Shown here: one piece after another, positions 3,852 to 39,769 of the stretch | Numbering within the stretch: position 1 is the first letter of the stretch | Layout of the letters: the number at the start of each line of letters is the position of its first letter | IMG/VR virus record: IMGVR_UViG_3300031555_003522 | Location: 128,001 to 192,000 of that record | Length of the DNA stretch: 64,000 nt | DNA from: a virus | Lineage: Duplodnaviria > Caudoviricetes | Strand: one strand, 5' to 3' | Made by a program: the position numbers and the translations under genes | The notes under the pieces: generated by a model | Databases searched by the model: none | The model's input: only the letters and a program-made list of their open reading frames with translations | What the model was told of the DNA's origin: nothing

Positions 3852-4466
3852 ATGAGCAAACAATTCGAACTCGGTAATACCTCTATCCCCAGTCAGTTTA
3901 GCGTAAATTTGAAAAATAATTACGGTCTGATCTGGCTGGAAGCTAGAACCGCGGACTTCTATCGTGTAGTCCTTGGAACTTTTGCAGATTGCTGCAGACT
4001 GTATCAGTCTAAGGCAAATTCTCGTATCGGCCTGTCCCTTAAGGATGATAAGGGCAATTTTATCTTTGGCACTATTCTGTCTTTCCAGAAGCCTGAGGAA
4101 GAGTCTGAAGATGATTCCGGTAACTGGTATCTGGAATTCACTATGGATGAGGCCGACATGATTGATCTCGATATTGATATTGACAATCATAGCCGTGAAT
4201 TCATCCAGACTGCTATTCTGAAATGCAATTCTGTTATGAATGGTCGTTTCAAGAATACAGAAGTTCTGTATCATATGTTTATCGAAGCAATTAATACACT
4301 CACCACCTTCCTTGATGTAAACGCTACCGAAGGTGAGGAAGTTGAAGTTGTTTTGCGTGCAGTATTTACTGCTACTGTTGCATACGATGATGAAGGAAAG
4401 AAAATCTTCTCCATCATTCCTGGTGAATATATTAAGCAGCTCATTAAGAACGATGCTGCTCTGTGA
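3852..4466 (+). CDS. Hypothetical acidic protein (early)
   Basis: 204-aa ORF with AAGGAGG RBS and biased codon usage. Confidence 0.8.
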   Translation: MSKQFELGNTSIPSQFSVNLKNNYGLIWLEARTADFYRVVLGTFADCCRLYQSKANSRIGLSLKDDKGNFIFGTILSFQKPEEESEDDSGNWYLEFTMDEADMIDLDIDIDNHSREFIQTAILKCNSVMNGRFKNTEVLYHMFIEAINTLTTFLDVNATEGEEVEVVLRAVFTATVAYDDEGKKIFSIIPGEYIKQLIKNDAAL

Positions 4467-4480
4467 TTTAAATCACGATG

Positions 4481-4513
4481 ACCGGATGGGGTCTTCCCAT
4501 CCGGTTTATTTTT
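4481..4513 (+). terminator. Intrinsic terminator
   Basis: accggatggg / cccatccggt plus T tract. Confidence 0.75.
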
Positions 4514-4540
4514 AATCTTCTAGAAAGGGGTTATAAACCT

Positions 4541-5203
4541 ATGTCTTTAGTAAAGGCTAAAATAGGTGAAACCATCTATGATGTAGTCAGCTACGAAGAA
4601 TATTATAGAAATATGTCACTATATCCAGCAGCATATACTGCTATTAGATATGGTGATGGGTATATATATCCCATTAGACCTCTGTCTGACTATAGACCTG
4701 GCGCATATATGACAGGATGTTTGGATGTTTTTAAACCTCCTACGACTGCTACAGAATGCGCTATGTATAGTGAACAGAATATCATAGATTTCACTAAGGC
4801 TGAAGGTATGAGAGATCTCATAACCTGTAGCCAGATGCTCAATGCCGCAGAGAGATCTATTCTTACAAATATAGACAACCTATTTATTCCCGATATTGGT
4901 GAGAATGATACTCCTGAAATGCAGGCTCTTAAACAGGCGATTATTGCAAAGCATATAGATCTCGATAAGTATGAACCTCGGTTTGGCCCTAATTATAATA
5001 ATGATAAGAGACTTCTGAGGAAGGATAGAATCACATTTGATAAATTCCGTACAATTGGTGAATGTTTGGATATTAAGGCAACTTTAACCATTGAAGATGC
5101 TAACCCTGATGTTCCTAATCCTATTGGACGAGCTATTAGTGTAGAAATTACTGGCCGTCCTATGTCTATCGATGGCGATGGTGAAGTGGAGGTACAGGAA
5201 TGA
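4541..5203 (+). CDS. Hypothetical protein
   Basis: ATG at 4541 follows a GAAAGGGG RBS (the track start at 4478 overlaps the terminator); stop overlaps the next ATG (ATGA). Confidence 0.75.
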   Translation: MSLVKAKIGETIYDVVSYEEYYRNMSLYPAAYTAIRYGDGYIYPIRPLSDYRPGAYMTGCLDVFKPPTTATECAMYSEQNIIDFTKAEGMRDLITCSQMLNAAERSILTNIDNLFIPDIGENDTPEMQALKQAIIAKHIDLDKYEPRFGPNYNNDKRLLRKDRITFDKFRTIGECLDIKATLTIEDANPDVPNPIGRAISVEITGRPMSIDGDGEVEVQE

Positions 5204-6975
5204 ATCAACGTGAAGCCATTGCTGGTTTTATAAATGAAAACCGAGCAAAATTTAATCCGTTATTCTTTCAAAGAGATGAAGATGAAATCATCAAAGAATT
5301 GATGAATGTAATTAAATCTTGTGAAAGAGATAATAAGTATTTTACTATTAAAGTACAATCATATAGAATCATTGATGATTATGATGAAATCAATCAGATT
5401 CTCTTTGATTATTATGAGAGTACTACAAAAAATAAATCCAAGGCTAAGAAACGAGACAATCAATATGGATTTATTAATCTTAATGAGTCTTATATTAGAC
5501 TCTTGATTGTGACTTATTATGTCAAGGATAGTAAAGAGGATGGTACAATTGATGTTGTGATCGCTGTACCTAGAATTATTGATAGATACTATTTCAAGAT
5601 TAATGGAATTATGAGATCCACTCTGTTCCAGATAGTCGATGGTAGTACCTATAATAATGGTACTTCTAATGCTAAAACTCCTAGTATTACTCTTAAGATT
5701 ATCTTTATGGCAACAAGAGTTACAAGATATTTCTTAAGTGTAAAAACAACTGAAGGAGACGAATTAAAGCTTACACATTATTACTCTCGTATCTTTAGTA
5801 AGGGTGTGAGCGCTGCAAAATATATATTTGCAAAGTTTGGCTTCTTAGGAGGATTAGATTTCTTCGGTCTTGCAAATGGATCTATCTTTATTACCAAAAA
5901 TGATCCTTGTGATACTAGCCTATATACCATTCAGTTACAGAATGAATGTTATATAAATAGTCCTAAAATGATTCTTGATAATAATGTGCTTGTACAATCT
6001 GTTATAGCAACACTATATCAAAATATCATTCCTTCTATGGATTATGAGACTATCTTTGATCCTGTTTTCTGGGTAAGAAGCCTTGGAGTAGAATTTAGTG
6101 GTGGCGGAGCCGAAAGACTTGCTGCTATTATGGATCCTGAAGATGATACCGTTACAGATACCTACGATAAAGGTTGTAGCATTCTTGATTCTTTCGAATC
6201 TATATATGATATCAGTACAAGAGAGTCTATTAAGCTCCCTGAAGAAGATAAAGCTACCACTTATCATATTCTTAGATGGATTATGAGAGAATTTAATGCC
6301 CTCAGAGTAAAGGATAATCTTGACATTAGTTGTAAGAAAATTCGATTCGCTGAGTATATTGCATCTCTCTATGCGTTTAAGATCGCTAAGGGTATATATC
6401 GTGTATCTGATATGAATAAGAAGGCTAGTATATTAAGCATTCGTAAAGCTATTAGAACCGATCCGAATTTCCTTTTAGCCGCTATAACCAAATCTAAAAT
6501 GGTATCTTATCGTAATATGGTTAGCGATATGGATTCTATGCAAGCCCTTAAATTCACATATAAAGGTGTATCTGGACTTGGAGAGAATTCTAATCAGTCT
6601 ATTCCTGATATTTATCGTTCTATTCATCCTAGTCATATAGGAAGAGTAGACCTTGATGCGTCTTCTGATGGTAATCCTGGTATTACTGGAACAATCTGTC
6701 CTTTCGCATCTATCTATGACGGCTTCTTTGAAGATTATCAGGAGCCTAATAGCTGGGAACAGGATTTTATGTCTGTAATGGATGACTATAAGAAAGCTAC
6801 CAATTTGAAAGATGCTATGATCTTTGAAGAAAAAATTCTTGGTACGGATAGACATGAAGATATAGAAGCTACCTCTGAAGTCATCGCTACGATGCAACAA
6901 ATCATTAAACCTGTTCTTTTTGCAGATCAGGGAGAGATTGTTTCATTGGAGGATGTTTATAATGGCAGCTATTAA
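5200..6975 (+). CDS. Phage RNA polymerase beta subunit, N-terminal part
   Basis: YFKING...QI and RSIHPSHIGRVDLDASSDGNPGITG correspond to RpoB FIING and H.SHYGR.CP..TPEG.N.GL. Confidence 0.88.
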   Translation: MNQREAIAGFINENRAKFNPLFFQRDEDEIIKELMNVIKSCERDNKYFTIKVQSYRIIDDYDEINQILFDYYESTTKNKSKAKKRDNQYGFINLNESYIRLLIVTYYVKDSKEDGTIDVVIAVPRIIDRYYFKINGIMRSTLFQIVDGSTYNNGTSNAKTPSITLKIIFMATRVTRYFLSVKTTEGDELKLTHYYSRIFSKGVSAAKYIFAKFGFLGGLDFFGLANGSIFITKNDPCDTSLYTIQLQNECYINSPKMILDNNVLVQSVIATLYQNIIPSMDYETIFDPVFWVRSLGVEFSGGGAERLAAIMDPEDDTVTDTYDKGCSILDSFESIYDISTRESIKLPEEDKATTYHILRWIMREFNALRVKDNLDISCKKIRFAEYIASLYAFKIAKGIYRVSDMNKKASILSIRKAIRTDPNFLLAAITKSKMVSYRNMVSDMDSMQALKFTYKGVSGLGENSNQSIPDIYRSIHPSHIGRVDLDASSDGNPGITGTICPFASIYDGFFEDYQEPNSWEQDFMSVMDDYKKATNLKDAMIFEEKILGTDRHEDIEATSEVIATMQQIIKPVLFADQGEIVSLEDVYNGSY

Positions 6976-13339: not shown

Positions 13340-16300
13340 GTGACTCTAATGATTAAAGGTAGAAATCCTGGAGACAATATAACATTGATGAATACAATGT
13401 TTGTTCAAGGGACTGATCCATCTGATGGTAAATTCCATCAAACGATGACATTGGTTTATAAAGATCTTGATAGTGGTCTTAAGCATGTAGAGGAGATCGA
13501 CGATCCTGATTATGAATATTTTATGATTCACCCAGATAAGAGGGTGGATTATAATAGATTATTTGTATCTAAAGACGATGTAGAACGTATTGTAGTTCCA
13601 TATGGATCTTTGGAAAAAGATATAGCTTTGAGGCTTGGATTTAAAGAATTCTATTACGATAATATTCGTACTGGTAATAAAGGTGAGAATAGAAAACTTC
13701 ATATCCATCCTGATCTATTTAATAGTGATATGAATATAGAGGATCACTATAAATTCAGATTTGACAAGATGTATAGAAATGAAACTTGCCCTATAACAAA
13801 AGCATTTTTTGATATTGAGGTTGATAGTATTAATATGATGGGAGACTTCCCAGAACCTGGTGAATGTCCTGTTAATGCTATAACTCTTATTTGCCAAGAT
13901 GTTCATCAAGTATATACATTCTTGTTGAGAACTAAATCCAATCCTCAGATTATTGAATTTGAAAAGCAAGTTAATGACGGCTCTATATTTCCAGAATTAA
14001 CTAATTTCGTTATAGAGGCCGTTGGTGGTCCTCAAGTAGCAGCATCATATGAGATTAATTTTAATTACAATTTCTTATTCTATGATGAAGAAGATGAGAT
14101 TAATCTTATTAAGGATTTATTTGTAGCCATTAATATTCATAAACCAGATTTTGCACTGGCATGGAATATGGGCTTCGACGTTCCGTATATTATTCAGAGA
14201 ATAATAAATCTTGGATATGATCCTTGTGACATAATGTGCCATCAGGATTTTAAACGCAAGATTGTAAAATATATGGTAGATGAGAGAATGAAAAATGAAT
14301 TGGCTGAACGAGGAGATTATGCGGCAATATCTTCTTATACTGTATATCTCGATCAGATGATCCAATTTGCGTCTCGACGTAAAGGACAAAGTAAGTTTTT
14401 ATCATTCTCATTGGATTACATCGGTGAGCATATTGCTGGTGTAAGAAAGCTTGACTATAAAGCTATAACCACGAATATTGCAGAGCTTCCTTATAAATCT
14501 TATAAGACCTTTGTATTCTATAATATAATCGACACCATAGTTCAGTATTGTATTGAGATGAAGACAAAGGATATAGATTATGTATTTGGTAAGGCTCTTT
14601 TAAATAATACAAGATATTCTAAAACCCATAGACAGACTGTTTATTTGACTAATAGAGCTGCTAAAGTTTTTGATGCACAGGGATTTATTATTGGTAATAA
14701 TGCTAATAAGTTTAATAGCAAACCGGATGAAAAATTCCCTGGAGCGTTTGTAGCAGATCCTGAAAAAGTTAATAATACTTCTCGAATGCAAATTTATGGG
14801 TTATTTATAAACTTATTTGACAATTGTGTGGATTTCGATTAAGCAATAGTCGCTTAATTCAGTAATGGATTAAGAAAACTCCCTTAATTGCTGGAAACTC
14901 TAGCAGAAGTGATATAATTGCTTCATCCATATATTATAAATATGGTGCTAGACAATCAGCAGCCAAGAAAAATTGTAAAGGAGACTTTTATCGTGAGAAG
15001 ATATGAGTTCGAAATCCCTATAGATATAATAGATCCATCTATTCTATTGAATGGGGAAAGATTTGAATATATAACAGAAGATATTGTTCCTGGGGTATAT
15101 CCATATTATATGGTATCGAATTGTGGCAGAGTATATCACAGGTATCTTCAATGTATAATGAAACAGGGTTTAGAAACGAGTGGTTATCTATTTATAACTT
15201 TAGCTACTTGTAATGGGCCAAAGATAATTCAAATGAATAGACTAGTCTTAATGACATTTGACCCTAATCCAAATTGCCATGAACTACAAGCAAACCATAA
15301 AGATGGTAATAAGCTTAACAATTATCTCTATAATTTAGAATGGGTAACAAGATCTGAAAATATTATTCATGCATATGAAACTAAACTTCATATACCAAAG
15401 AGCAGTATTTCAGAAGATCAAGCTATTCAAATAGTAGAATTACTAAAAACCAATCAATATCAGTGTAAAGAAATAGCTATTATGATGGGTATTAATGAAA
15501 ATATAGTAAATTCTATTAAGAAAAAAGAATCTTGGAAAAGATTAACTAGAGATTGCAATTTTGATGCTAGACAAGGAAAGTTATATACGGATAATGATGT
15601 TCGTATTTTATGCGAATATTTTCAAAATAATCCAAAATTAGAAGGTCTAGAATCTAAAGCTTATGTACTAGAAGCTTTGATATCTTGTGGATTTGATAAC
15701 CCACAAGATAAAGTAGATACGGCAAGAAAGATCTATTCTAAAAAACATTATACTAGAATTTCTAAAGATTACAATTTTTAAGGTTCAACGACTATCGAAA
15801 GGATAATATGAGAGAAATACTCATATGAATAACCGAGTAGAGTAGAGTTCTAGTGAACTCGAAATGGGGAGCGTCCTATAAACGGTAACAGAATATAGGA
15901 TGATGATATAGTCTAATCTATATGGTGACATATAGCAGCTTACAAGCGGTATAAGATTAACGACCTTATATGAATAAAAATGTTTGCTTCGCTATACCCA
16001 TCTTTGATCCGTCAGTTTAATATAGCAGCTAATACTATTATTGGTAAGCTGATGATTAATGACAAAGTTCATGACAAAGAAAATATTTCTGATATGGATA
16101 ACTGGACTAGAGCTGGTGCATTTATGGAAGATATTCAGTCTCAGCAGTGGCTAGAGTTTACTTCCAGATGGTTTGGACTGCCAGATTATACTGTTCTGTA
16201 TCATGAAGTAGAGAGATTCTTTACGCAGATTGCTAATGCGTATCTCGGTCTTAGGGTCTACGAAAGAGATGGAACTATAGAGCCTATCACATTTGATAAA

Positions 16301-35882: not shown

Positions 35883-38800
35883 TTAGAACTGAATCATATT
35901 TGTAGAATTATTATTAGAGCCACCTCTAAATATTCCGATAGATTCTATCGGGAAACCCTTCAGATTGTTATTAATGATTTCATCATAATTAACAAATGGA
36001 AGTATCCAAGCAGGAACTGGTTCATTTAGAGGAATAGCTATAGCATCTATTCCAGTAGCATACTCTTTCTGCTTCATAAGCTCCACAGCCTTTTCATATA
36101 CATAAGGATGAGACTCTCTAATTCTATCAATATTCTTAGGGGTTATATTAACTTTAGCAACATCGATAGAATTCCGAATACTCATATCCAATGCTTCTGT
36201 CCCAGGCTCATGAAGAGCATTATAAGCTTGAGATGCTACTATACCTTGAATTCTCATGGGATTTTCATATGCTGATAGAGATTTTACCTTAAGAGGCTTA
36301 AAGAATTTCTTCTCACCACTCTGAATAGATTGATATATTTTCTTTTCCTCTTTAGCCAAATCTCTAAGAACAACAATAGGATCTATAGATTCCACATTCA
36401 ATATATCTTCTGCAAGTATTCGCTTTAAGTCAGCCTGAATAGTTGGATTGACTGTAGACTTAACAAATACTTCCATGCCTTTTGCATCAATAGATTTTGC
36501 ATCAGGAACCTGGTTTCCTTCCTGAAGCTCAACCTTATATGCATAGTGTTTCTTTGCATGACTAGATAGAAGAACACGCTTGAATCGTTTATTACTTTAT
36601 ATCACTATAAAGACTAGACTATATCTTCATCTTAAATACTATTACCATATTTGAGATGCTCCCCATTTCGAACTCTATCAAGAGCCCTACTCTACTCGGT
36701 TATTCTCATAGATCTTTCTTCTATGATATCCTTTCGATAGTCGTTGAACCTTCCTCTATTGAGGCTTGGCTGCTGATTGTCTCAATGAGAGTTCCCAGCA
36801 ATTAAAGGAGATTCTACATAATGTCACCACTATGCAGCCCTATTCTTAAGGAATTCGTTCTTCATTGTAATTAGGCATGCACGCTCATTATCAGAGTGAG
36901 CATTTGTGCAGTATCTATCCATAAAATCATTCAAAAGAATACCTACACAATATGCAAGAATATTTATAATGGAATATCTTAATCCATCCTGAGGTATAAT
37001 TACCATTGGGTCAACTAATCTATCCATCTCAATCATATCATCATCAACAAAACTATATTCTGTAACCTTTCCAATTACAGGTTCTGTCTTTATTTCTCCA
37101 TCATCGATAAACGTAGCAGCATCTACATTTTGTGTCTTAATCTTCATAGGAATCTCACAACACATTTGTCTTACATACTGATACCATCCATCAAATGATA
37201 CAATTGCACTCGCTTTGTTCATATAGGATCGCAACTCCATACAGTTCTCTTATGAACTTCTATATGTTTCCATATAGGCCAGACTATATCATCACCCTAC
37301 TATGGGTGCCTCCCATTTCGATTTAAAAGGTCTTATTTGGACATCGCCTTACCCCATTATAAGCTTGGGCTCTACTCTACTAAGTTCATCTATAGATGCT
37401 TTTCGATAGTCGTTGAACGTTCCTCTGTGCGAGGATTCGCTGCTGATTGTCTTTTATAAATTAATAAGAAGATTTTCCAGCAATTAGAGAGGTTATCGAC
37501 GCATGTTTCCATGCAAAGGGACGTAAATATCTTCATCCGTGTCCTGAATAATACTGACAGATCTGACTAGAGAATCCATCTTAGCCAATCTATCAATAAT
37601 CTGCTTATTATAATATACATACTCATACAAGATATCTGTTAGAGCTTTAAGCGGCTCTATAATATTCTCTGGAGGCTCATTAGGATCCATAAATGGAGCA
37701 TCGAGACTCTGAAGTATGAATAGTATAGCTTGTGTGACAGGAGCGTTATCAATGAAATGATATAGATTATTCTTATAGAAGAGTCTATCGAGTTCATCTT
37801 GATTGAGCTTAGATAGAATTTCCCAAATTATATGCATTTCATCTTCACTAGGCACCCATCCATATCCAGTACTAGAAAGTAACTGGAAGAAGGTTTCTTC
37901 AATAGAAGCATGAATAGTAATAATACCATTACTATTGAAATGATGCTCTTCTGTAAGCACCGTATGAATAAATTCAACGAGTTCATTCATGGAACTCATT
38001 GGTACATTATTATTTAAGAAAGATTCTAGGAATAGCGCGGCAGCACTATTGCAAGATCTACCTTGAGTTGTAACACTGGAAGCAGTATAAAGATTATAGA
38101 AAATACAAGAATACTGCCCAGTAGCTCCATAAACAATATATTCAAGTGGTTCATTACTCCACCCAGTTCTCTTATGAACTTCTTTAGCTTTCACCAAAGT
38201 TTAGACTATATCTTCATCCATAAAGGATGTCCAGTACAGGATCTCATGATTTGAGACCTCTTAGTCGTTGAACCTTCCTATTTCTAGGCTCGGCTGCTGA
38301 TTGCCTATTGTACCATCCTTCTACTATTTCCATTTAGGCAAGAAGGCTTTAAGGTGTCCCAGCAATTCTCTGGATTTAATCGATACCATTACTGGTAAAG
38401 TGGACCTTAGTTAATCCATTCATCTGGAGCTTTAAAAATACCATCATTTTCATGATGGGTTAGACTATATCTTCATTCATTTAAGAATGGTCTCTGTTTC
38501 GAGCATTAAGCCCTACGTCTTTCGACTAGTCGTTGAACGTTCCTCTAAACAAGGCTTCGCTGCTGATTGTCCAATCTCTATATTTTCAAACATTCACGAT
38601 TACTCTTTCAAGTTGCGTTGTAGTTATAGAGCTCTAAGGAGTTTCCAGCAATTAAGAGACTTTAACGACACCAATGGATTTAATTTAGCGTCGATCTTAC
38701 GCAAGTACCTCATATCGCTATGAGGGCTAGACTATATCTTCATCTATATCTCTATTACCAAGATATAGATGCTCCCCATTTCGAGTTCACTAGAACTCTA

Positions 38801-39769
38801 CTCTACTCGGTTATTCTCATAGATCTTTCTTCTATGATATCCTTTCGATAGTCGTTGAACCTTTATAAATCAGAATCAGTAATACAGAATTTCATATTAG
38901 TTTTTTCTTTCACAACTATGGCTACAATCTGATATTCATCTCTGTATACTATTTCAAGATTAGAACCATCAGACTCTAATCTTATCACATTGATGCTTTT
39001 ATTCAATGCCGCTTTCTTTATTTCTCGAATAGCTTTATTGAATTTTCGATTACCTTTCTCTGTAAAGTAAGATATAGTACCATGAAGTATATCAAAAGGT
39101 CTTTCTAAATATCTATCAAAATACCATGATAATCTAAATGCTTCATCTTCATCGAAGATATCATCGAGACCAACAAGAATTCCAGTATGTGGTCTACTAC
39201 ACCCAGATTCATATTCATATCTATAATACACATATCTCACTTCCTTTCTGATTTATACTTGGCTGCTGATTGTCTCAGTGAGAGTTCCCAGCAATTAAAG
39301 GAGATTCTACATAATGTCACCACTATGCAGCCCTAAAATTAAGGAGTAGCTGAAGTAGATTATATTTCTCAAAATCTTCAGATCCTTTAGGATACTTGAA
39401 CATTTCTTTCTTCATAGCTTTTCTATCATTTATAAAGCCATCGATCATTCCATACAGTGGATTAGGAACAGTTCCGTGTCTCTTAAACAATACACCATAG
39501 GAAGTTATAATAGGTTCTTTATCCATGATATAGTTTGCCATATAACTCAAGGTAGAGTTGATTTGTTTGTGGGTATAGTTATTATCCACCACCACAGGAG
39601 TATCTTTAAAATGTTGCGAAATAGACCAATCTATTGCAGCAGATAATTCTCCCTCAGATAGTAGCGGGAAGTTAAAGTGCAGCATATCCATACATATTCG
39701 CTTGTATTCTGCTAGTGCTTTTACATCCGGATATGTCGCATATACTGTTCTATTCGTTATAAAACCCAT
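35883..39769 (-). CDS. polB: Family B DNA polymerase, C-terminal part (motifs B and C, thumb); exons 39769-39342, 38699-38687, 38420-38414, 38133-37535, 37210-36849, 36585-35883; 703 aa spliced
   Basis: Exon lengths 428+13+7+599+362+703 = 2112 nt, in frame; splicing rebuilds RKAMKK, LLQLLLKIDANGFYGATG (motif B), SVTTQGR, IQDTDS (motif C), MKNEFLF and KKHYA. Confidence 0.92.
36586..36848 (-). mobile_element. Group I intron 5 of polB-C (ORF-less, 263 nt)
   Basis: P1 ccU/ggg; gaat pairs with 3' exon attc; full set of core motifs; ends ...aaacG. Confidence 0.9.
37211..37534 (-). mobile_element. Group I intron 4 of polB-C in motif C (ORF-less, 324 nt)
   Basis: P1 ggaU|g / cgucc; core aatcagcagcgaa, gttcaacgacta, gatatagtct; splicing gives DTD|S. 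Confidence 0.9.
38134..38413 (-). mobile_element. Group I intron 3 of polB-C (ORF-less, 280 nt)
   Basis: P1 uggaU / gucca; core motifs; ends ...tattG; splicing gives T|TT (Phe). Confidence 0.87.
38414..38420 (-). other. 7-nt micro-exon AATGGAT (Asn-Gly-F|) of polB motif B
   Basis: Lies between the terminal G of intron 2 and P1 of intron 3; exactly complementary to the intron-2 guide atccatt. Confidence 0.85.
38421..38686 (-). mobile_element. Group I intron 2 of polB-C (ORF-less, 266 nt)
   Basis: P1 gacgcU|aa / uuggugu c; P10 atccatt; core motifs; ends ...agatG. Confidence 0.9.
38687..38699 (-). other. 13-nt micro-exon TAAGATCGACGCT (|L-K-I-D-A) of polB motif B
   Basis: Supplies the invariant motif-B Lys; flanked by the intron-1 terminal G and intron-2 P1. 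Confidence 0.87.
38700..39341 (-). mobile_element. Group I intron 1 of polB-C (642 nt) with an ORF in the P6 loop
   Basis: P1 ccU|uaa / uuaggg; P10 uuuua/uaaga; core nearly identical to intron 5. Confidence 0.9.
38863..39240 (-). CDS. Intron-encoded protein of unknown function (no homing-endonuclease motif)
   Basis: GTG start after GAAAGGAA; 125 aa; bracketed by the 12-bp stem tataaatcagaa/ttctgatttata. Confidence 0.7.
   Translation of the reverse strand: MRYVYYRYEYESGCSRPHTGILVGLDDIFDEDEAFRLSWYFDRYLERPFDILHGTISYFTEKGNRKFNKAIREIKKAALNKSINVIRLESDGSNLEIVYRDEYQIVAIVVKEKTNMKFCITDSDL

Follow-up and report, generated by a model that had tools for sequence, protein, structure and literature searches.

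A conserved gene in P6a of a phage group I intron encodes a protein of a previously undescribed family

To our knowledge, open reading frames (ORFs) within phage group I introns have nearly always been assigned to a small set of known homing-endonuclease families. Genes other than endonucleases can reside in group I introns, as the precedent of rps3 in an intron of fungal mitochondrial rRNA shows. Among phage intron ORFs, there are described cases of an end lying within P6a, of a ribosome-binding site engaged in pairing and of a start codon other than AUG (PMC3073962). Here, we analyzed a stretch of 64,000 nt (the window) from the Caudoviricetes virus record IMGVR_UViG_3300031555_003522 (positions 128,001 to 192,000), in which a group I intron of a DNA polymerase gene carries a small ORF in its P6a loop. 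Judged by profile searches and conservation, the 122-aa product of this ORF founds a previously undescribed family that has no homing-endonuclease features, and we tentatively favor, at a probability of roughly 45%, the reading that it is a functional accessory cargo gene housed in P6a and not the intron's own homing endonuclease. The complete record comprises 207,861 bp (84% complete), and its DNA-level matches to known phages, namely AR9, PBS1 and Staphylococcus phages, are confined to group I intron cores. The gene, its translation signal and the flanking stem arms are located as follows:

38863 to 39231, minus strand: cargo gene of 122 codons plus TAA with a probable GTG start, supported by homologues and dN/dS.
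39237 to 39249, minus strand: Shine-Dalgarno (SD) sequence AGAAAGGAAGUGA, read from the sequence, its first 4 nt inside the P6a stem.
39246 to 39257, minus strand: 5' arm of the P6a stem, UAUAAAUCAGAA, from inverted-repeat search, folds and covariation.
38864 to 38875, minus strand: 3' arm of the P6a stem, UUCUGAUUUAUA, spanning the final four codons and two nucleotides of the stop, from inverted-repeat search and folds.

The longest call in the program-made ORF list spans 38863 to 39240 on the minus strand (125 aa) and opens with a GTG that falls within the SD sequence itself. All homologues begin with M-[YL]-Y-R-Y, corresponding to residue 4 of the 125-aa ORF and thus to a position three codons downstream of GTG 39240, and the homologue in the related locus L002 carries an ATG at the position equivalent to GTG 39231. 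As the homologues begin at this point and L002 has an ATG there, the true start is most likely the GTG at 39231, located 8 nt past GGAAG, which would yield the 122-aa protein. The original prediction of an intact ORF with an SD at 38863-39240 therefore stands for the integrity of the frame and the presence of the SD, while its start is better placed at 39231. The SD is strong and of Gram-positive type, and the GAAAGGAA block is also found upstream of the homologues in L002, L004 and L029. An out-of-frame ATG at 39233, 2 nt upstream of the probable GTG start and overlapping it by 1 nt, opens a 42-aa ORF (39105-39233, minus strand); in L002 the in-frame start is an ATG and the out-of-frame ATG is not present. 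No sigma-70-like promoter was found upstream of the ORF on its own strand, the number of such sites in the region not exceeding the expectation from shuffled sequence, and a terminator-like site near the ORF was rejected as a terminator, being the P2 hairpin.

A word-index search retrieved 18 homologues with identities from 87% down to 44%, and an exhaustive search extended these to 57 clusters at 50% identity; the family alignment used for all residue counts comprises 65 sequences, down to about 30% identity. Comparison of the ORF with L002 gave a dN of 0.139, a dS of 0.81 and an omega of 0.17, with dS values of 0.62-1.27 and omega values of 0.02-0.04 for the flanking polymerase exons, and the ORF is intact in all lineages examined. 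On the strength of these substitution rates the ORF is a genuine gene under purifying selection; a lack of such selection, which the original prediction had named as evidence against it, is not what the comparison with L002 returned. Five residues (F59, T60, G63, D101 and Q104) are invariant across the alignment, and R7 (64/65), Y8, G20, F41, L45, P48, F67 and Y99 are conserved in at least 90% of the sequences, with E9 at 89%. The core measures about 105 aa, contains no conserved His or Cys in the 65 sequences, and has D101 as its sole invariant acid. AlphaFold models were confident and showed the order beta-alpha-beta-alpha-beta-beta-beta with a Lys/Arg-rich helix pair at residues 61-79 and a predicted disordered stretch of 15 C-terminal residues, although they gave no confident fold match. 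A homodimer prediction (two copies, family alignment) scored 0.01 and weighs neither way.

Profile searches placed the protein outside the established families. None of the 65 members matched Pfam at E≤10, no family-wide match was obtained in PHROGs and PADLOC (65 members) or NCBIfam (10 members), and PDB sequences gave nothing significant, the best being the uncharacterized 4ycs at E 0.044. Weak matches to phrog_6370 (dsDNA binding protein, E 0.02) and phrog_4222 were disregarded, as they concerned only one and three of the 65 members, respectively. A tblastn search of 50,697 phage records returned a single marginal relative, Lysinibacillus phage LC76P1 (E 9e-3), two family loci lie in Clostridia-class metagenome-assembled genomes, and the literature covered on intron and homing-endonuclease gene databases, jumbo phages and viral NAD systems does not mention the family.

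The individual nuclease classes were likewise not recognized. For HNH, there is neither a Pfam match nor a conserved His or Cys among the 65 members, and the ORF of a sibling intron does match HNH_3 and NUMOD4 in the same test; a supposed kinship with this sibling ORF, read from its start RRYEFE and the family start YRYEYE, was dropped after hhalign found no relation. For GIY-YIG, no Pfam match was obtained, the YRY...GIL resemblance is superficial and no Arg is conserved in the next helix. With respect to PD-(D/E)xK, the sole invariant acid D101 is followed by x-x-Q instead of (D/E)xK, and no profile matched. Neither motif nor profile indicated LAGLIDADG, for which the core of about 105 aa compares with about 160 aa or more per domain pair. 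The fold-search lists of both models contained no nuclease fold and no Alba, RelE/BECR or GIY-YIG chain, which is absence of evidence only. The absence of a recognized homing-endonuclease motif, as first noted from the letters, was thus borne out in Pfam, PHROGs, NCBIfam and PADLOC, and the protein offers a poor basis for a metal-dependent nuclease because it has no conserved His or Cys and only one invariant acid.

The carrier intron and its host gene are organized as follows:

35883 to 39769, minus strand: divergent family-B DNA polymerase gene (PF20286, divDNApol, in the syntenic L002).
39342 to 39769, minus strand: polymerase exon 1, ending in ...EKYNLLQLL (PF20286, divDNApol, in the syntenic L002).
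38700 to 39341, minus strand: group I intron bearing the gene, 642 nt, with the 5' splice site after CUCCU (39342) and its terminal G at 38700.
39258 to 39341, minus strand: ribozyme 5' half (P1-P6), 77/78 identical to the ORF-less twin.
38700 to 38862, minus strand: ribozyme 3' half (J6/7, P7, P3', P8, P9), 92% identical to the 3' half of the HNH sibling.
38687 to 38699, minus strand: micro-exon 2, UAAGAUCGACGCU, 13 nt, between the carrier intron and the next intron.

Five related group I introns interrupt the polymerase gene, four of which pass the Rfam gathering score. The fifth, the carrier, is split by the ORF into two RF00028 half-matches of 36.6 and 22 bits on either side, and its ORF-less twin scores 92 bits against the same model. 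The carrier is identified as a group I intron by these core half-matches, the exon junction, the terminal G and a P10 pairing (AUUUUA/UAAGAU) read from its sequence. Splice junctions were set by comparison with the intron-less L039-42, with L029, and with L002, which is without three of the window's introns. Removal of the intron restores LQLLLKIDANGFYG, as in the intron-less L039, whose joined-exon type of polymerase site reads CTTTTGAAGATAGAC; the spliced product LLQLLLKIDANGFYGATGQY is polymerase motif B, which the carrier intron splits. An alternative assignment with the 5' site after CAGCU and the 3' site after GAUAUGAG (giving LQLYLRKID) was dropped because only two residues separate LQL from KID in L039 and L029, one fewer than it requires, and because P10 fits the other site.

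Motif B harbors three group I introns within about 20 nt, separated by micro-exons of 13 nt (38687-38699) and 7 nt (38414-38420) in the stretch 38414-38699 (minus strand); L002 has the first of these three introns only, and L039-42 have none. Several introns share a 3' extension consisting of AAGUUCAUAAGAGAAC, a hairpin and then UGAAGAU..., found at 38133-38181 (minus strand) in the window and at L004:5453-5508, L008:4790-4838 and 5489-5538, and L029:4400-4448. The extension hairpin shows compensatory changes between loci, and an initial reading of the window copy as coding (EVHKRTGW) was superseded by its recognition as a conserved intron 3' extension.

Two further introns of the window share near-identical ribozymes with the carrier:

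36595 to 36861, minus strand: twin intron of the same gene without an ORF; P6a consists of the 4-bp stem CCUC/GAGG capped by an AAUA loop.
14843 to 15940 (approximate ends), plus strand: sibling group I intron with an HNH_3/NUMOD4 gene (14993 to 15781) in P6a.
14968 to 14978 and 15769 to 15779, plus strand: P6a stem of the sibling intron, 11 bp, perfect.

The ORF thus occupies the spot at which the sibling carries its HNH gene, as had been proposed. Its loop is bounded by the inverted repeat TATAAATCAGAA / TTCTGATTTATA, in which 39246-39257 pair with 38864-38875 over 12 nt at 100% complementarity, and the pairing is retained in both the minimum-free-energy and the centroid folds of the intron. 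In agreement with the earlier description of a perfect stem including part of the SD and the stop codon, all 12 positions are complementary, and the stem takes in four SD nucleotides, the final four codons and two of the three nucleotides of the TAA stop. Relatives close the same loop with differing sequences, namely 10 bp in L008 (stop UAG inside), 9 bp in L065 (UGA inside) and 6 bp in L004, and the sibling HNH intron does so with a perfect 11-bp stem directly followed by its SD. Read from these folds and comparisons, the 12-bp stem is the P6a helix and not a chance repeat. As the twin, the introns of the relatives and the sibling HNH intron all close this loop with a stem, the clamp appears as the standard design of the intron family. 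A dependence of ORF translation on intron folding is plausible, being the usual arrangement of phage intron ORFs such as I-TevI in td (PMC3073962) and nothing peculiar to this locus.

The content of P6a varies among these introns. The L002 counterpart of the twin intron (L002:6556-7565) bears an HNH-like ORF of 240 aa, and one of 266 aa is found in L043-46, within an intron at the window's third, ORF-less intron site (both motifs by eye); taken together, these differences look like gain and loss of endonuclease genes among close relatives. A whole tRNA-Leu gene lies in P6a of a group I intron of an RNA polymerase subunit gene, with anticodon UAA in L004 and L006 and UAG in L008 (introns L004:3779-4392, with the tRNA at 4038-4122, L006:478-1091 and L008:3148-3745), the reverse of the classical tRNA-Leu gene containing a group I intron. 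In all three loci, this intron is directly upstream of the ORF-bearing intron. In L029, the intron after the one with the family ORF (4449-4884) contains a 70-aa ORF (4573-4785) without a Pfam match, which may be a second non-endonuclease cargo.

The genomic settings of the relatives fall into about 23 lineages, comprising 7 in intron P6a, 5 in tRNA arrays, 7 in other free-standing positions and 4 as domains of large phage proteins. Those used below are:

Intron P6a, seven lineages: window/L002, L004-7, L008, L019, L029-31, L032-36 and L065.
tRNA arrays, five lineages: L001, L011, L025-28 with L037, L038 and L066.
P0057 (L009:4001-5971, 656 aa): transglutaminase-like domain (Cys/His motif by eye), Tpt1-like ADP-ribosyltransferase (ART) lobe, then the family domain.
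L023: transglutaminase-like domain, family domain, NUDIX.
L021: HExxH, family domain, phrog_2921.
P0072: family domain, then P-loop kinase and GNAT.

The ORF-bearing introns occupy at least three insertion sites, two of them 13 nt apart in polymerase motif B and one in the RNA polymerase subunit gene (phrog_25005). In L025-28/L037, the ORF stands between tRNA-His and tRNA-Met with gaps of 2-25 nt, and the same arrays hold other small ORFs in which no HNH or endonuclease motif was seen by eye, their families not having been searched. At L028:1-546, a family-bearing tRNA array is directly adjoined by an HU-like gene and by an ORF resembling RNA ligases (KxDG motif TKMDG). Free-standing settings include early-gene regions, and a GNAT / ORF / SNF2-helicase order is kept in two diverged phages in which the neighbors are 63-92% identical and the ORF 49%. 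The fused forms are proteins of 656, 828, 986 and 1592 aa; a complete 266-kb phage with such a form gave no group I intron match. The Tpt1-like lobe of P0057 spans residues ~174-280 (hhalign P 7e-4), and among the neighbors of P0057 are genes for ADPrib_exo_Tox, a metallophosphatase and a Tpt1 (PTS_2-RNA), the last of which was predicted as two fragments. Among further neighbors of the family are a protein with HD and a tRNA-anticodon OB-fold as well as PARG. In a phage-like contig, a reverse transcriptase of group II intron type (RVT_N, RVT_1, GIIM, HNH) is located 2 kb upstream of a family member (L063:1-1598).

The resemblance to ARTs deserves separate consideration. Chains of ART fold turn up repeatedly among the weak matches of two independent fold searches: DarT1, ParT, MbcT, AvrPphF and several Tpt1/KptA C-lobes for model 1, and PltA, MbcT, pertussis S1 and TreTu for model 2. 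In the VIA search, with either model, the ART alignments cover the whole domain; the Foldseek lists also include a Tpt1 and the ART toxin TreTu. The secondary-structure order matches the NAD lobe of Tpt1; aligned by hhalign with seven Tpt1 sequences, the family reached a probability of 0.2%. An Arg in strand 1, as expected of ARTs, is present as R7 in 64/65 members, preceded by an aromatic residue and located in the model strand 5-10. At the strand 56-59, which is followed by a helix, S57 is found in 49/65 and F59 and T60 in 65/65 members, so that the order is S-x-F-T, unlike S-T-S. The catalytic Glu of (Q/E)-x-E has no consistent counterpart, as E102 occurs in only 33/65 members and the invariant residues are D101 and Q104. 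Of the R-S-E signature put forward in the original prediction, the R, S-x-F-T and D-E-Y-Q residues do exist, while the supposed catalytic Glu is not conserved, and the modeled resemblance to ARTs is weak.

We favor an accessory gene because of the residue pattern, the missing nuclease signal, the conserved synteny and the multi-domain fusions, and also because small motif-less genes occur in the tRNA arrays and the sibling HNH genes could act in trans. The covarying P6a stem closes the loop, leaving the ribozyme core able to fold irrespective of the loop content. Under this reading, ribosomes finishing the ORF would have to melt P6a, so that translation and splicing would compete, as is known for phage intron ORFs. 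The ligand of the protein would be either a nucleotide or a nucleic acid, in the latter case probably a structured RNA or a tRNA, and a putative binding site would combine R7, Y8, E9, T60, Y99, D101 and Q104 with the Lys/Arg-rich helix pair 61-79. This is suggested by the association with tRNA genes, by RNA-repair-type neighbors (Tpt1, metallophosphatase, RNA ligase, P-loop kinase) and by the Lys/Arg-rich helices. It would serve the phage and not the intron, which might spread through the HNH enzymes of sibling introns acting in trans or by recombination between near-identical ribozyme halves. Several points weigh against this reading. The proposed RNA or nucleotide binding is drawn solely from context and residue pattern; intron loops, intergenic islands and tRNA arrays are just the places that free-standing and intron-borne homing-endonuclease genes occupy in phages (SegB in the T4 tRNA region, cited in PMC3073962); the ORF diverges faster than its neighbors (49% vs 63-92% and 80% vs 89-98% identity), which would fit a retargeted selfish element too; three insertion sites of ORF-bearing introns imply that the intron-plus-ORF unit has moved; and the protein may use nuclease chemistry of a new type. 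More broadly, and rather more doubtful than the accessory role itself, P6a may be a general cargo bay of these jumbo-phage introns, taking up HNH genes, an ART-lobe-like, fast-evolving RNA/nucleotide-binding effector and tRNA-Leu, with the introns serving as vehicles between essential genes and between phages.

Among the alternatives, an unlikely one, though the strongest of them, makes the protein the first representative of a homing-endonuclease family whose fold is as yet unrecognized; by cutting the polymerase, RNA polymerase or tRNA-array allele that lacks the intron, it would promote its own copying and that of the intron. It would account for the P6a position shared with the sibling HNH genes, the recurrence of the ORF, within P6a of related introns, at three insertion sites spread over two host genes, the free-standing copies in variable islands and tRNA arrays and the fast divergence, and it finds some support in the basic helix pair, in the weak PHROG matches of single members to DNA-binding families and in the existence of an intron-less relative (L039-42). 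However, a core of about 105 aa with one invariant acid and no conserved His or Cys, the embedding of the domain in large multi-domain proteins and the synteny kept between diverged phages all speak against it, as does the presence of HNH enzymes in the same genome that could mobilize introns in trans; the lack of a nuclease fold among the structural neighbors adds absence of evidence only. We regard as a little less probable again a minimal ART-fold protein that binds or uses NAD+ and acts on RNA, DNA or a host protein. Its proposed site would combine R7 of the first strand, F59-T60 where the second strand ends and D101/Q104 in the turn between strands 4 and 5, and the weak tail of the fold searches with both models, Tpt1 and TreTu in the Foldseek lists, the order shared with the Tpt1 NAD lobe and nearby or fused NAD/ADP-ribose genes (NUDIX, PARG, ADPrib_exo_Tox, Tpt1) are in line with it. 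Yet hhalign against Tpt1 remained at 0.2%, no member matches any Pfam ART family, an invariant Gln takes the expected position of the catalytic Glu with E102 variable, and P0057 has a separate, better-matching Tpt1-like lobe, for which a partner domain fits at least as well as a second ART.

A splicing cofactor, that is, a maturase or RNA chaperone recognizing the tRNA-like group I core and aiding the three adjacent introns split by 13- and 7-nt exons, appears improbable. Although 12 of the ~23 lineages are housed by structured-RNA genes, in an intron loop or a tRNA array, six related introns occur in the window, with three packed into about 20 coding nt, and CYT-18, as cited in PMC3073962, is a precedent of a tRNA-binding protein on group I cores, the idea is a poorer fit, as introns are few or absent in many carriers: the complete 266-kb phage with a fused form has no group I intron match, many homologue loci show no intron in the flanks examined, and L002 retains the ORF while lacking three of the window's introns. 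In addition, known group I maturases derive from LAGLIDADG enzymes, unlike this protein. A decaying or chance ORF without function is hardly credible and already contradicted by conservation; the in-frame GTG start, the overlapping out-of-frame ATG and the predicted disorder of the C-terminal 15 residues are set against the low dN/dS (0.17), integrity in every examined lineage, five invariant columns across 65 sequences and confident AlphaFold models.

If the protein cuts DNA, it represents a new endonuclease family with a new small fold, relevant to intron mobility and to compact sequence-specific nucleases. If it does not, the locus clearly exemplifies a selected non-nuclease gene inside a phage group I intron, which together with the tRNA gene in the same loop of related introns would alter how large phages and their introns are seen to relate. 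In both cases, the protein defines a domain that has lacked annotation, is widespread among metagenomic phage contigs and recurs in tRNA arrays and large multi-domain phage proteins.

Comparison with known systems places these features in context. With phage intron HNH genes, exemplified by the window's sibling and by I-HmuI-type enzymes, the ORF shares its place in P6a of a near-identical ribozyme, an SD right after an 11-12-bp perfect stem, a stop codon abutting the 3' arm and the existence of free-standing relatives. In contrast, its product has 122 aa instead of 240-266 aa, lacks HNH/NUMOD motifs and conserved His, Asn or Cys, belongs to a family without a profile or fold match to nucleases and can form one domain of a larger, multi-domain protein. 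As for rps3, it is an organellar gene for a ribosomal protein and belongs to another intron class and biology. The Tpt1/KptA NAD lobe and ART toxin cores resemble the protein in their ~100 aa, the order beta-alpha-beta-alpha-beta-beta-beta, weak whole-domain structural alignments, an aromatic-Arg pair in strand 1, x-F-T where strand 2 ends and an acid/amide pair preceding the final strand. As in phage polyvalent proteins (PMC5512222), the domain is found in jumbo-phage proteins of 656-1592 aa together with peptidase-like, NUDIX, GNAT, P-loop kinase and ART-like modules, whereas no Pfam model, including those of polyvalent-protein domains, matches the family, most copies stand alone, and intron and tRNA-array settings are not described for those domains. 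SegB in the T4 tRNA region (PMC2330249, as cited in PMC3073962) is likewise a small gene packed among phage tRNA genes, but, going by that citation, is a GIY-YIG enzyme with shown cleavage, whereas the family and, by eye, the other small array genes lack such motifs. I-TevI in the T4 td intron has the same P6-loop ORF with its 3' end in P6a, a ribosome-binding site at or within RNA structure and a non-AUG start (PMC3073962); here, the protein shows no kinship to I-TevI (no GIY-YIG profile match), pairing involves just 4 nt of the SD and no separate sequestering hairpin was identified. What this locus presents is thus a new protein family in an already known kind of genetic niche.

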